Assembly: GCF_046105845.1 (NCBI RefSeq)
Contig: NZ_CP151004.1
Strand: one strand, 5' to 3'
DNA: 64,000 nt
Source of the DNA: Escherichia coli
GTDB taxonomy: Bacteria; Pseudomonadota; Gammaproteobacteria; Enterobacterales; Enterobacteriaceae
Position 1 is the first letter of the stretch, and the number at the start of each line of letters is the position of its first letter. Shown piece after piece: positions 11,415 through 61,977 of this stretch. The position numbers and the translations under genes are program-made. The notes under the pieces are model-generated. The model worked only from the letters and a program-made list of their open reading frames with translations, ran no database searches and was not told where the DNA came from.

Positions 11415-11598
11415 AGTGGCTCATTCACCGACTTATGTCAGCCCCTTCGGGACGTGCTACATAAAATTCGAATGACGCACAACAAGGTGCCTGCCGTCCA
11501 ACTTCTGATATCAGCGTAGCTATATCAATCATCGGGCGAAACGTCGAGTTAGGCACCGCCTTATTCCATAACAAAGCCGGGTAATTCCCGGCTTTGTT
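11415..11598 (+). ncRNA. glmY: Small RNA GlmY (activator of the GlmZ/glmS pathway)
   Basis: Sequence beginning agtggctcattcaccgacttatgtcagccccttcggg matches my recollection of GlmY; about 184 nt; ends in hairpin aaagccgggtaattcccggcttt plus a U-rich tail; lies upstream of glrK with a sigma54 promoter and GlrR-type sites. Confidence 0.8.
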
Positions 11599-40793: not shown

Positions 40794-41033
40794 TTTAACC
40801 GTCCTGTTTCGTGTTGCATCTGCGTTGACTGCACATACTCACTCTGGTCACTTACTTATGTAAGCTCCCGGAGATTCGTAAGTTTGTCAACTTGCTGAAA
40901 CCCGAAACAGTTAGGTTAAAGATAACAAGATATTAGAATCAGGCCGGGGCGTATCGCGCTCCGTAAACACGGTCGTACATCCAGCCGGTAGCCTGGTTCC
41001 TTGCATTGAGTGATGTACGGAGTTTATAGAGCA

Positions 41034-46029: not shown

Positions 46030-46245
46030 TTTCCGCGTCATGCTTCACGCCGCAGATGCGTTGGCTGCGCTCGTTCACCCCAGTCACATAGTTATCTATG
46101 CTCCTGGGGCTTCACTCACTTGCCGCGTGATTCGGCCTTTTGGCCTCACCCCTCCGGGGCCAGCGCAAGCGCTGTTCAAAACGCAATGCGTTTTGTCCTG
46201 CAACGCGAATCATTTAGCGGAAAAATCCTGGGGCTGCCAACTGGC
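46030..46245 (-). repeat. ERIC (IRU) element
   Basis: The reverse complement of 46040-46130 reads GTGAAGCCCCAGGAGCATAGATAACTATGTGACTGGGGTGAACGAGCGCAGCCAACGCATCTGCGGCGTGAAGCAT, a close match to the ERIC consensus (GTGAATCCCCAGGAGCTTACATAAGTAAGTGACTGGGGTGAGCG...) as I recall it; abuts the iscX stop. Confidence 0.65.
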
Positions 46246-47650: not shown

Positions 47651-47675
47651 GAACGTTGAATGAATTGTGGTTCTT

Positions 47676-48452
47676 ATGTCCGAAACAAAAAACGAACTTG
47701 AAGATCTGCTGAAAAAAGCAGCAATCGAACCGGCGCACCGCCCGGCCTTTTTCCGTACTCTACTGGAATCCACCGTCTGGGTGCCGGGTACGGCGGCGCA
47801 GGGCGAGGCTGTGGTTGAAGATAGCGCGCTTGATTTACAGCACTGGGAAAAAGAAGACGGCACCAGCGTCATTCCTTTTTTTACCTCGTTAGAAGCACTT
47901 CAACAGGCGGTTGAAGACGAACAGGCATTTGTCGTAATGCCCGTTCGCACATTGTTTGAGATGACCCTTGGCGAAACGCTCTTCCTTAATGCCAAACTGC
48001 CAACCGGTAAAGAATTTATGCCGCGTGAAATCAGTTTGTTGATTGGTGAAGAAGGAAATCCGCTGAGCAGCCAGGAAGTACTGGAGGGCGGTGAATCGCT
48101 GATATTATCGGAAGTCGCAGAGCCACCAGCACAAATGATTGATTCTCTCACCACCTTATTTAAAACTATTAAGCCGGTGAAGCGTGCTTTTATTTGTTCA
48201 ATTAAAGAGAACGAAGAGGCACAGCCTAATTTACTTATTGGCATTGAAGCCGATGGTGATATCGAAGAAATTATTCAGGCGGCGGGAAGTGTAGCGACCG
48301 ATACATTACCTGGCGATGAACCCATCGATATTTGTCAAGTGAAAAAAGGGGAAAAAGGAATTAGCCACTTTATTACCGAACATATTGTGCCATTCTATGA
48401 ACGTCGCTGGGGTGGTTTTTTGCGTGACTTTAAACAGAACCGGATAATCTAA
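47676..48452 (+). CDS. sseB: SseB (enhanced serine sensitivity protein B)
   Basis: MSETKNELEDLLKKAAIEPAHRPAFFRTLLESTVWVPG... (258 aa); start at ATG 47676. Confidence 0.88.
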   Translation: MSETKNELEDLLKKAAIEPAHRPAFFRTLLESTVWVPGTAAQGEAVVEDSALDLQHWEKEDGTSVIPFFTSLEALQQAVEDEQAFVVMPVRTLFEMTLGETLFLNAKLPTGKEFMPREISLLIGEEGNPLSSQEVLEGGESLILSEVAEPPAQMIDSLTTLFKTIKPVKRAFICSIKENEEAQPNLLIGIEADGDIEEIIQAAGSVATDTLPGDEPIDICQVKKGEKGISHFITEHIVPFYERRWGGFLRDFKQNRII

Positions 48453-48454
48453 AA

Positions 48455-48754
48455 TATGCCGCCCCAAAGGGCGGCATTCGGGCTTACCTGCTGTTCTGAA
48501 GGTTGTTAACCACCAATAAATTGTTGCCGGAGAGATTCCGGTTATTATTTACCTCGGTTAACAGCGCACCAGAAACAATAAGTACGATACAAAAGCACCG
48601 TATCTTCATTGTGCGGTCCATGCGAAGACCGCATCACGACAGCACCACTGGCGATATTGCCGCGATAGCAAGCGCTGAGACGCGCGTGCCCTAACGGTCG
48701 CGGAACATCCTTTCCTTAAGCCAGCGCCCGCTTGCGAGACGGCGGAAAGGTCCG
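48455..48754 (-). ncRNA. ryfA: ryfA-like transcript (about 300 nt) carrying a small hydrophobic ORF; boundaries inferred
   Basis: On the minus strand there is a -10-like TATTAT at 48766-48761 and a terminator hairpin gccgccc-tttg-gggcggc followed by atatttt ending near 48455; length and location between sseB and sseA fit what I recall of RyfA. Confidence 0.5.
48484..48609 (-). CDS. Small hydrophobic protein (41 aa; TimP-like candidate type I toxin) within the ryfA-like transcript
   Basis: Minus-strand ORF MKIRCFCIVLIVSGALLTEVNNNRNLSGNNLLVVNNLQNSR then TAA; hydrophobic N-terminal helix; in-frame alternative ATG four codons upstream (48621, giving MDRTMKIR...); below the ORF-track length cutoff. 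Confidence 0.45.
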   Translation of the reverse strand: MKIRCFCIVLIVSGALLTEVNNNRNLSGNNLLVVNNLQNSR

Positions 48755-48797
48755 CAGTGGATAATACACTAACAGAACAATAATAACTCTCTTTTGC

Positions 48798-48826
48798 TTG
48801 ACAAAAAGAGGGTTACTGGCGAGTAT
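48798..48826 (+). promoter_or_regulatory. Sigma70-like promoter of sRNA-like unit A
   Basis: TTGACA (48798-48803), 17-bp spacer, GAGTAT (48821-48826); the same architecture is repeated 276 bp downstream. Confidence 0.4.
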
Positions 48827-48832
48827 TGTCTC

Positions 48833-48930
48833 CGCTGAGACGCGCTTGCATTACTACGGTAATACAACCTGCTGGAAAGGCCGCGAACCGGACCAGCAAC
48901 AAAAAACCGCCTGATTTTGGCGGTTTTTTG
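48833..48930 (+). ncRNA. Candidate sRNA, unit A (putative antitoxin RNA pairing with the ryfA-like mRNA)
   Basis: Predicted 5' end about 48833; ends at terminator aaaaaaccgcc-tgatttt-ggcggtttttt (48901-48929); its first 13 nt (CGCUGAGACGCGC) are perfectly complementary to the minus-strand transcript at 48673-48685. Confidence 0.45.
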
Positions 48931-49073
48931 TTGTTTAAAGAAAATGAAATTACACGTTTAAGTAATATCTTTTACCAGTTAGTATATTTTAATATTAAGC
49001 GGGATTTTTTTATATTTGTCTGAATTCGGACTGATAAGCCAAATGAATTCAAAATCTATCCTTTTTTATCTAC

Positions 49074-49102
49074 TTGACATCGTTGATGCATAAAGCGAGT
49101 AT
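49074..49102 (+). promoter_or_regulatory. Sigma70-like promoter of sRNA-like unit B
   Basis: TTGACA (49074-49079), 17-bp spacer, GAGTAT (49097-49102); paralogous to the unit A promoter. Confidence 0.4.
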
Positions 49103-49108
49103 TGAGTA

Positions 49109-49197
49109 GACGAGATACACTTGCAGTAATACAACCTGCTGGAAAGGCCGCGAACCAGACCAGCAATAAAAAAACCGCCAAATTCGGCGGTTTTTTT
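49109..49197 (+). ncRNA. Candidate sRNA, unit B (tandem paralog of unit A with a diverged 5' region)
   Basis: The body gtaatacaacctgctggaaaggccgcgaacc-gaccagcaa is nearly identical to unit A; terminator aaaaaaaccgcc-aaattc-ggcggttttttt (49165-49197) has a different loop but a conserved stem; this terminator is also positioned to serve the convergent sseA. Confidence 0.4.
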
Positions 49198-49213
49198 ATT
49201 GCCTGTAAAAAGC

Positions 49214-50059
49214 TTATTTCAATGGCTCAACCGGTAAATCTGCCCGTGCGCCCCATTCACTCCATGCGCCGTCGTACAGTTTCACGTTTGGCACATCCAG
49301 CGTCGCGAGTGCCAACAAAACCACGGCTGCCGTTACACCAGAGCCGCAGCTGACGATAATCGGTTTGTCATAGCTGACGCCGCGACCAAAAAATATCGCA
49401 TCCAGTTCATCGGTCGTTTTTAGTTCGCCTTCGCGCACCAGTTCCGTCCACGGAACGTTCAATGCACCGGGAATATGTCCGCGACGTAAACCTGGGCGAG
49501 GTTCATCAACTTCTGCGTTAAAACGTGCAGCCGGGCGGGCATCAATAATTTGCGCCGTATTTTCATGGCTTGCCAATAACACATCGGTGACTTTCACCAC
49601 GGCTTCAGGATTAAACGTGGCGTTAAACTCTCCTTCCGGCAGCTCTACTGCCCCTTCTTCTAACAGCAGATCATCACGCTGCCAGCCTGCAAGTCCACCC
49701 CCCAGAATCGACACTTTCTCTACACCAAAGGTGCGCAGCATCCACCATGCTCGTGGGGCTGAGAATAGATTACCTTCGTCATAGATAATCAGGTGCTTAT
49801 CCTGGTTAACGCCTAATTCACGCATCGCCACGGCGAACGTTTCCGGGCGCGGCAGCATGTGCGGAAGCGGGGAAGTGTGATCAGAAAGCGCTTCGATATC
49901 AAAAAATACTGCGCCGGGAATATGTCCATTCAGATACTCCTGAGCAACGTTACGATCTTCCTGTCCAGGCGACGCCATGCGGGCATCGATAATCTGAATT
50001 TCCGGGTCATCAATATGTTCGGCGAGCCAGTCGGCTCCTACAAACCATGTCGTGGACAT
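49214..50059 (-). CDS. sseA: 3-mercaptopyruvate sulfurtransferase (tandem rhodanese domains)
   Basis: MSTTWFVGADWLAEHIDDPEIQIIDARMASPGQEDRNVAQEYLNGHIPGAVFFD... (281 aa); active-site context SCGSGVTA; start at the internal ATG 50059, not the 334-aa ORF-track start. Confidence 0.9.
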   Translation of the reverse strand: MSTTWFVGADWLAEHIDDPEIQIIDARMASPGQEDRNVAQEYLNGHIPGAVFFDIEALSDHTSPLPHMLPRPETFAVAMRELGVNQDKHLIIYDEGNLFSAPRAWWMLRTFGVEKVSILGGGLAGWQRDDLLLEEGAVELPEGEFNATFNPEAVVKVTDVLLASHENTAQIIDARPAARFNAEVDEPRPGLRRGHIPGALNVPWTELVREGELKTTDELDAIFFGRGVSYDKPIIVSCGSGVTAAVVLLALATLDVPNVKLYDGAWSEWGARADLPVEPLK

Positions 50060-60748: not shown

Positions 60749-61867
60749 ATGCATAACCAGGCTCCAATTCAACGTAGAAAATCAACACGTATTTACGTTG
60801 GGAATGTGCCGATTGGCGATGGTGCTCCCATCGCCGTACAGTCCATGACCAATACGCGCACGACAGACGTCGAAGCAACGGTCAATCAAATCAAGGCGTT
60901 GGAACGTGTTGGCGCTGATATCGTCCGTGTCTCCGTACCGACGATGGACGCGGCAGAAGCGTTCAAACTCATCAAACAGCAGGTTAACGTGCCGCTGGTG
61001 GCTGACATCCATTTCGACTATCGCATTGCGCTGAAAGTAGCGGAATACGGCGTCGATTGTCTGCGTATTAACCCTGGCAATATCGGTAATGAAGAGCGTA
61101 TTCGCATGGTGGTTGACTGTGCGCGCGATAAAAACATTCCGATCCGTATTGGCGTTAACGCCGGATCGCTGGAAAAAGATCTGCAAGAAAAGTATGGCGA
61201 ACCGACGCCGCAGGCGTTGCTGGAATCCGCCATGCGTCATGTTGATCATCTCGATCGCCTGAACTTCGATCAGTTCAAAGTCAGCGTGAAAGCGTCAGAC
61301 GTCTTCCTCGCTGTTGAGTCTTATCGTTTGCTGGCAAAACAGATCGATCAGCCGCTGCATCTGGGGATCACCGAAGCGGGTGGTGCGCGCAGCGGGGCGG
61401 TTAAATCCGCCATTGGTTTAGGTCTGCTGCTGTCTGAAGGCATCGGCGACACGCTGCGCGTATCGCTGGCGGCCGATCCGGTCGAAGAGATCAAAGTCGG
61501 TTTCGATATTTTGAAATCGCTGCGTATCCGTTCGCGAGGGATCAACTTCATCGCCTGCCCGACCTGTTCGCGTCAGGAATTTGATGTTATCGGTACGGTT
61601 AACGCGCTGGAGCAACGCCTGGAAGATATCATCACTCCAATGGACGTTTCGATTATCGGCTGCGTGGTGAATGGCCCAGGTGAGGCGCTGGTTTCTACAC
61701 TCGGCGTCACCGGCGGCAACAAGAAAAGCGGCCTCTATGAAGATGGCGTGCGCAAAGACCGTCTGGACAACAACGATATGATCGACCAGCTGGAAGCACG
61801 CATTCGTGCGAAAGCCAGTCAGCTGGACGAAGCGCGTCGAATTGACGTTCAGCAGGTTGAAAAATAA
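60749..61867 (+). CDS. ispG: 4-hydroxy-3-methylbut-2-en-1-yl diphosphate synthase
   Basis: 372 aa [36 protein letters not shown]... with cluster cysteines (FIACPTCSR ... GCVVNGPGE). Confidence 0.96.
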
Positions 61868-61977
61868 TAACGTGATGGGAAGCGCCTCGCTTCCCGTGTA
61901 TGATTGAACCCGCATGGCTCCCGAAACATTGAGGGAAGCGTTGAGGGTTCATTTTTATATTCAGAAAGAGAATAAAC

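Follow-up and report, generated by a model that had tools for sequence, protein, structure and literature searches.

A second, probably orphaned TimR small RNA at the timP/timR toxin-antitoxin locus of Escherichia coli

The timP/timR (ryfA/ryfB) region of Escherichia is a known type I toxin-antitoxin locus, in which the mRNA of a small toxin is met by a divergently encoded small RNA (sRNA). This report addresses the locus as it stands in a stretch of 64,000 nucleotides (nt) of the Escherichia coli chromosome (contig NZ_CP151004.1 of assembly GCF_046105845.1), referred to below as the window. Here, one toxin gene is accompanied by two sRNA genes in tandem, which we call unit A and unit B. We put at roughly 85% the probability of the following reading as a whole: the region is timP/timR, unit A is the resident TimR, and unit B is an intact TimR of a third specificity type, orphaned by the loss or replacement of its toxin. 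That TimR pairs with the timP leader, the core of this system, was known before; what is new in detail is the third specificity type and the pattern of orphans.

The toxin gene and two sRNA units between sseB and sseA

The locus lies between sseB (47667-48452, plus strand) and the convergent sseA (minus strand, stop codon at 49214-49216), and reads in order sseB, ryfA/timP (minus), unit A (plus), a spacer, unit B (plus) and sseA. It is identified as timP/timR because of the Rfam match to ryfA, the RefSeq annotation of timP, the annotated timR of K-12 (b4811), the published work on mechanism and the sibling modules of Shigella dysenteriae. A preliminary description of this DNA, made from the letters alone, had reported the antisense pair, which is not a new one. 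The ryfA RNA, which is the timP mRNA with a type-1 leader allele, spans 48451-48755 on the minus strand (Rfam RF00126, 308 bits, full length) and is the sole copy in the window. It contains an intact open reading frame (ORF) of 41 amino acids (48484-48609, minus strand; MKIRCFCIVLIVSGALLTEVNNNRNLSGNNLLVVNNLQNSR), hydrophobic in its N-terminal half, whose orthologs carry the NCBI name TimP. As a small hydrophobic ORF whose mRNA would be the target of an sRNA, it has the predicted make-up of a type I toxin.

Two tandem, paralogous sRNA genes with a promoter and a terminator each had been proposed for the region that follows, and the repeats, promoter hexamers and inverted repeats bear this out. 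The promoter of unit A (48798-48826, plus strand) consists of a -35 hexamer TTGACA (48798-48803), a 17-nt spacer and a -10 hexamer GAGTAT (48821-48826); that of unit B (49074-49102, plus strand) has the same hexamers at 49074-49079 and 49097-49102, again 17 nt apart. The predicted sRNAs occupy 48833-48929 (unit A, about 97 nt) and 49109-49197 (unit B, about 89 nt) on the plus strand, their 5' ends being placed by analogy with K-12 timR b4811, whose annotated 5' end is the 7th nucleotide after GAGTAT. From promoter through terminator, the two units share 82% column identity, and a 71-nt direct repeat of 87% identity joins 48859-48929 to 49126-49196. The 64 kb contain exactly two copies of the 21-nt body CTGCTGGAAAGGCCGCGAACC, where chance would give none. 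Both terminators are bidirectional hairpins made up of an A-run, a GC stem and a T-run, that of unit A (48897-48933) formed by an inverted repeat of 15+15 nt with 100% complementarity (minus-strand fold -23.0 kcal/mol, z-score -5.9), and that of unit B (49163-49202) by one of 20+20 nt with 95% complementarity.

The promoter layout TTGACA-N17-GAGTAT is kept in all TimR paralogs and species examined; GAGTAT agrees with TATAAT at three of six positions, retaining the critical A (position 2) and T (position 6). A consensus fold of 11 TimR variants comprises a single-stranded seed, a small hairpin, a conserved body hairpin and an intrinsic terminator, with four base pairs that are altered on both sides yet kept. 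Individually, unit A folds at -32.8 kcal/mol (z-score -3.7) and unit B at -27.2 kcal/mol (z-score -4.8). When the plus strand of 48798-48930 and 49074-49197 was compared with Rfam, no family reached its gathering score and only sub-threshold, terminator-driven matches were obtained; Rfam 15 appears to be without a TimR model.

Unit A begins 78 nt from the 5' end of ryfA, on the opposite strand. Its 5' end, with a type-1 seed at 48833-48849, pairs with the resident leader (ryfA nt 57-84) at -39.0 kcal/mol by RNAduplex, a value reached by none of 500 shuffles; a second test gave -37.3 kcal/mol (1 of 300 shuffles), the overall range being -33 to -39 kcal/mol. The predicted binding site covers 48672-48699 on the minus strand, in stem-loop 2 (SL2) of the 5' untranslated region (5'UTR) of timP, and its core at 48673-48689 is a direct repeat of unit A. 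In position it agrees with the SL2/G76 site mapped in Salmonella (PMC13000454). Because its 5' end pairs at the SL2 position beyond shuffles, unit A is, as judged from sequence, the TimR (RyfB1-type antitoxin) cognate to the resident toxin, and the view that it is antisense to the toxin leader holds.

The mechanism is a published one. Salmonella ryfA encodes the toxic inner-membrane protein TimP, whose translation is repressed through base pairing of the divergent sRNA TimR to the 5'UTR (PMC7667032). TimR binds SL2, with protection around G76, and destabilises a pseudoknot needed for initiation and ribosome loading; the binding favours an inactive fold of the timP mRNA and so blocks TimP synthesis (PMC11228461, PMC13000454). 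In the window, unit A would be transcribed divergently from timP, and its single-stranded 5' end would pair with SL2 in the same manner.

The length of the pairing deserves a closer look. The preliminary description gave 13 nt of perfect complementarity, and the figure is correct for this DNA, 48833-48845 being identical to 48673-48685; the identity extends to 17 nt with one mismatch, at 48686. It does not hold as a general length, since other type-1 genomes match perfectly over 17 nt. The G at 48686 is found in none of 5,426 complete E. coli genomes, each type-1 leader differing from the 63-mer of the window by at least one base, and the position is T in N3 and SCU-122. The G weakens the pairing with unit A by about 4 kcal/mol and, from the sequence, places a C-U mismatch in the SL2 stem; by published mutational data, it could lower toxin translation.

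A third copy of the body motif had been seen in the ryfA region, and this too is confirmed: GGAAAGG(N)CCGC occurs three times against 0.09 expected. The body motif GGAAAGGCCGC (48874-48884 and 49141-49151) is a direct repeat of the ryfA 5' end GGAAAGGTCCGC (48744-48755). The TimR body could thus pair with ryfA nt 1-12, the 5' arm of stem-loop 1 (SL1), as a second contact. Across species, this pairing potential is kept only through wobble changes, with no clear compensatory evidence.

Unit B and its partner leader in other strains

Unit B is predicted to be a TimR paralog of a third specificity type. It differs from unit A in the seed (49109-49124, GACGAGAUACACUUGC), in the promoter spacer and by an 8-nt deletion that takes out the small hairpin, and it retains the body hairpin and the terminator. 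The promoter hexamers of the two units are identical and their spacers alike at only 3 of 17 positions, which argues that unit B is an old paralog whose promoter elements were kept, and not a recent copy in random decay. It lies in the same intergenic region as the toxin, but unit A and the spacer stand between the two; the annotated timR of K-12 occupies the same distal slot.

Against the resident leader, unit B reaches -15.0 kcal/mol, and 409 of 500 shuffles are at least as good; in a second test it reached -14.4 kcal/mol (231 of 300 shuffles at least as good), with an overall range of -12.8 to -15.0 kcal/mol. Its complementarity to the resident timP SL2 is within the range of shuffles. By homology, unit B is a member of the TimR family, and on its pairing profile it is an antitoxin without a resident partner; unable to pair with the type-1 leader, it would exert no control over the resident toxin. 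That both units have the conserved body and terminator and lie in one intergenic region, and that GGAAAGGCCGC is complementary to the ryfA 5' end, would suit a redundant or back-up antitoxin for the resident timP. However, the seed pairs with the resident leader at shuffle level, and RyfB1 of S. dysenteriae acted on RyfA1 only and not on RyfA2 (PMC5333039), so that we consider a back-up role very improbable.

The partner of unit B is found in other strains. The ryfA leader of MSB1_4I, JNE070796 and E700025 reads AAGCGACGAGATACACTTGC, a perfect match (16 of 16 nt) to the first 16 nt of unit B. With this type-3 leader, unit B forms a duplex of -34.4 kcal/mol at leader nt 60-87, and none of 300 shuffles reaches it. 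Among 5,426 complete E. coli genomes, the sample used for all counts below, the type-3 leader is present in 39; leaders were counted with their native flanks, an earlier chimeric query with guessed flanks having given a false negative (no full-length match of at least 99%). In each of four type-3 genomes picked by their leader alone, unit B occupies the distal slot and its upstream junction is that of the window. Unit B is the sole matching antitoxin in all seven type-3 genomes examined. The TimP proteins of a type-1 locus (N3) and a type-3 locus (JNE070796) are identical, and diversification is therefore at the level of RNA pairing. The cognate target of unit B would thus be this leader site in its type-3 form, which a minority of E. 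coli strains possess. The preliminary description had unit B changed precisely in the pairing segment, either as a decaying copy or with a different target. The change is real and the resident toxin is not targeted; decay is unsupported, and the different target is right in a specific sense, namely as a third variant of this toxin leader that other E. coli strains carry and the window lacks.

In all, 394 genomes have unit B. Because only 39 carry the type-3 leader, at least about 355 have unit B without a type-3 toxin allele, as in the window. Some of the type-3 genomes bear mobile elements at the unit: in MSB1_4I, IS1 replaced the first two -35 bases (TTGACA to CCGACA), and in several others (L013, L014, L027-L029) IS200/IS605 replaced the terminator with the element's own hairpin.

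Could unit B be a decaying pseudogene, a dead TimR copy? It has no target in this locus, the 8-nt deletion removes its small hairpin, and in some genomes IS1 has entered its -35 and IS200/IS605 its terminator. However, an identical unit B, hairpin deletion included, serves as the sole cognate antitoxin in type-3 genomes; its -35, -10 and terminator are intact here; and over 106 nt the unit shows at least 99% identity in 390 of the 394 genomes. Furthermore, its differences cluster in the seed and exactly match another allele, which random decay would not yield. We therefore regard a dead copy as unlikely.

An intact gene that lacks its toxin partner might also have been co-opted as a trans-acting sRNA with another chromosomal mRNA as its target, and a study in avian pathogenic E. 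coli suggests TimR effects that are independent of RyfA (PMC13188913). Nevertheless, no complementary site of at least 9 nt for the unit B seed was found elsewhere in the 64-kb window, and the type-3 toxin allele explains the seed exactly, with no need of a further target. Co-option seems still less likely than decay.

The 3' half of unit B raises a different question. Its minus-strand hairpin (-27.2 kcal/mol, z-score -7.2) begins 13 nt past the stop codon of sseA, with a U-run after it, in agreement with the earlier suggestion that the terminator is placed for the convergent sseA, which it probably also serves. Termination of sseA may help to retain this half of the unit. The stronger version, in which unit B or its 3' half is retained mainly as the intrinsic terminator of sseA and the sRNA part is a passenger, draws on that same hairpin and on its orthology in single-unit, K-12 and window layouts. 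But it leaves the intact promoter and seed unexplained, the hairpin is absent in Escherichia albertii and Escherichia marmotae, and IS200 replaces it in several type-3 genomes. It is the foremost of the rival explanations, although we hold it to be doubtful. The sRNA unit of E. albertii and E. marmotae has no CCGCC/GGCGG terminator hairpin (AGACCAGCAATAAAAAAC and then TTATTTCAC).

Several points weigh against reading unit B as an intact, orphaned TimR. We infer the transcription of units A and B in this strain, and a generic promoter and terminator scan reported neither unit, the -10 being weak by consensus (3/6). This miss is attributed to the tool, whose hexamer threshold and absorption of the T-run into A/U pairs stand against such units, and it is not counted against them because the same promoter layout is conserved in every paralog and species examined. 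The small internal hairpin missing from unit B is present in every other TimR variant examined, and its loss could reduce stability or activity. In no genome was a type-3 toxin seen directly beside unit B, and the ancestral type-3 module is thus a supposition. The census consists of megablast identity bands with queries of 63-106 nt rather than per-genome parsing. The search of the source genome for a type-3 leader covered the 64-kb window. Finally, deletion of timR in avian pathogenic E. coli had little phenotype (PMC13188913), and the toxicity of TimP and the function of TimR are less well established in E. coli than in Salmonella.

Specificity types, tandem arrays and the history of the locus

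The sRNA 5' ends co-vary with their own leaders, and six specificity types are distinguished across Escherichia and Citrobacter. The seeds are CGCUGAGACGCGC for type 1, GCUGUGAAGCACCUGC for type 2, GACGAGAUACAC for type 3 and ACUGUGGGGUG for type 4, and two further types belong to Citrobacter. In a matrix of pairings, cognate duplexes range from -32 to -44 kcal/mol and non-cognate ones from -10 to -31 kcal/mol, with unit B as the most orthogonal. E. coli would accordingly hold at least four mutually orthogonal types of toxin leader and sRNA, as predicted from these duplexes.

Their frequencies are uneven. Leaders number about 2,986 for type 1, about 1,975 for type 2, 39 for type 3 and 527 for type 4, and sRNA units of type 1 are found in 4,549 genomes, of type 2 in 2,032 and of type 3 in 394. 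Both type-1 and type-2 leaders occur in about 50-70 genomes, which thus have at least two toxin copies. Since type-1 units are in 4,549 genomes and type-1 leaders in about 2,986, at least about 1,560 genomes, K-12 among them, have a type-1 unit but no type-1 toxin. TimR-like genes must number at least two in about 40% of complete E. coli genomes, and orphans are common.

The arrangement from which such orphans may derive is preserved in strain GF4-3 (NZ_CP053258.1), where three tandem modules of types 1, 2 and 4 each present a toxin and then its own cognate sRNA. A module there consists of a 3' fragment of sseB, the toxin and the divergent cognate sRNA, and the modules are joined at the sRNA terminator plus an AT-rich spacer of about 110 nt. 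The sseB fragments measure 87-100 nt and are labelled in RefSeq as partial sseB pseudogenes. Single canonical modules are found in Shigella flexneri (type 1), Shigella sonnei (type 2), E. albertii and O157 (type 4), and Escherichia whittamii (type 1). Every toxin examined has a matching sRNA somewhere in its locus. The notion that local duplication generated the antisense pair is not supported: the units are best read as what remains of arrays in which complete modules, each carrying a specificity of its own, stood in tandem, as GF4-3 illustrates.

On this basis, the window would contain one complete module, the type-1 toxin with unit A, alongside the sRNA left over from another module, the toxin of which was lost or replaced. 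In the simplest history, a tandem array would have lost its second toxin, and once only, because the upstream junction of unit B is identical in type-3 and window-type genomes. The sseB-proximal part would then have been replaced, through homologous recombination, by a segment with a type-1 toxin and unit A, leaving unit B as an orphan; we infer this order of events. Orphans would accumulate because an orphan antitoxin is tolerated, whereas a toxin without an antitoxin is not.

K-12 MG1655 (NC_000913.3, 2653356-2654158; timR b4811, ryfA b4440, timP b4812) offers a close comparison, with two sRNA units, the same spacer and a toxin-proximal unit identical to unit A of the window. Unlike the window, it has a type-2 leader, whose cognate, the annotated timR, is the distal unit adjoining sseA, and its proximal type-1 unit is an unannotated orphan. 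In addition, 59 nt from the 5' end and promoter of a second ryfA survive in K-12 upstream of the distal timR, and the window is without this remnant.

The spacer itself (48931-49041) is the AT-rich inter-module spacer of timPR arrays, matching that of GF4-3 over 111 nt and ending at ATAAGCCA (49041). It overlaps an Rfam match to IS128 (RF00125; 48887-49065, minus strand; 166.7 bits against a gathering threshold of 80). Two other origins were tried and rejected for it, namely a decayed second ryfA (local alignment score 14, with shuffles averaging 16.8) and a decayed 3' end of sseB (score 21, equalled or exceeded by 74 of 500 shuffles); only the 59-nt remnant of K-12 is homologous to ryfA. The IS128 model spans the antisense of the unit A terminator and the array spacer, and in K-12 it reaches what is left of the promoter and 5' end of the second ryfA; about 30 nt from the 5' part of the model are missing in the window. 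Rather than an independent sRNA gene, IS128 probably marks a truncated second module, and the "IS128 RNA" may be a transcript of the truncated second ryfA that halts at the bidirectional terminator of unit A.

Deletions that fuse the timP leader site to the sRNA seed were observed in Citrobacter amalonaticus, E. coli 06-00048, E. coli fS54a and E. marmotae, giving at least four cases in three specificity types, with both promoters and the ryfA 5' end gone. The pairing of site and seed makes them a direct repeat of 16-17 nt, and recombination across this repeat apparently caused the deletions. The fusion in fS54a is annotated as a hypothetical protein.

Relation to known systems and implications

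Expression of TimR as an RNA of about 100 nt and its repression of TimP translation have been published for Salmonella, S. dysenteriae and E. coli CFT073 and CH138 (PMC7667032, PMC5333039, PMC13188913). The locus resembles TimP/TimR of Salmonella Typhimurium (Andresen et al. 2020, PMC7667032) in its site, with the order sseB, ryfA/timP, timR and sseA, in the divergent sRNA of about 100 nt, in the pairing of the sRNA 5' end with SL2 and in the intact 41-amino-acid TimP ORF; it differs in having two TimR genes, the second unmatched to the resident toxin. This comparison was made by published description. A scan of genome contigs with a 23-base ryfA pattern returned five loci and was too strict to reach Salmonella, and a search with the TimP protein gave matches only in Escherichia and Shigella.

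S. dysenteriae carries ryfA1 and ryfA2 in tandem, each with a divergent sRNA of about 100 nt, RyfB1 and RyfB2, which are about 60% identical (Fris et al. 2017, PMC5333039). RyfB1 reduced RyfA1 and left RyfA2 unaffected, and a short variable stretch in the RyfA leader determines the specificity (PMC5333039). Going by that description rather than by the S. dysenteriae sequence, the toxin and unit A of the window look like ryfA1/ryfB1 and those of K-12 like ryfA2/ryfB2. In S. dysenteriae, each sRNA has its own toxin, whereas the second sRNA of the window has none, and the seed of unit B is a third type that is not described in PMC5333039.

The zorO-orzO/zorP-orzP locus (PMC3919570, PMC11264685) is likewise a duplicated divergent type I locus with sRNA-specific pairing. 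Orphan antitoxin sRNAs of this kind are widespread in E. coli, and the "orz-only" OrzP orphan of MG1655 is expressed (PMC11264685). The toxin and sRNA families are unrelated to those of timP/timR, however, and for zor/orz we found no description of several orthogonal alleles at one locus or of cognate sRNAs in a distal slot. A broad literature search for orphan TimR returned nothing relevant.

The remaining RNA elements of the window lie outside the locus. Rfam places ohsC (RF02495), which is the antitoxin sRNA in the type I system shoB-ohsC, at 2169-2233 on the minus strand with 70.5 bits, and GlmY (11415-11562), the iscRS element (40923-41032) and sroE (61867-61958) are also present; all four are ordinary for this chromosomal region. 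A match to Aggregatibacter sRNA 22 upstream of pepB (46131-46203, minus strand) is marginal, at 45.3 bits where the threshold is 39.8; it is composed of GC-rich hairpins and resembles a repetitive extragenic palindromic (REP)-type element, not a homolog.

A wider view, which we offer as speculation, is that timPR is a multi-allelic "lock-and-key" under diversifying selection and that orphan sRNAs are kept as pre-existing immunity. If so, at least four orthogonal specificities would shuffle through tandem arrays and recombination, and orphans, such as unit B here and unit A in K-12, would counteract timP alleles that arrive by recombination, or would allow the toxin allele to be replaced. This would be an RNA-level analogue of the orphan immunity genes in polymorphic toxin systems.

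The main confirmation is that a type I antitoxin could be recognised by a reader of the sequence alone. Beyond this, the sRNA adjacent to the toxin is not always the cognate one, the matching unit being distal in K-12-type genomes (about 1,560) and in type-3 genomes, and this bears on how timR deletions and "RyfB" overexpression are interpreted across strains. With at least four RNA specificity types while the toxin protein is almost unchanged, the locus provides a natural set of orthogonal sRNA/leader pairs for the evolution of seed specificity in type I systems.

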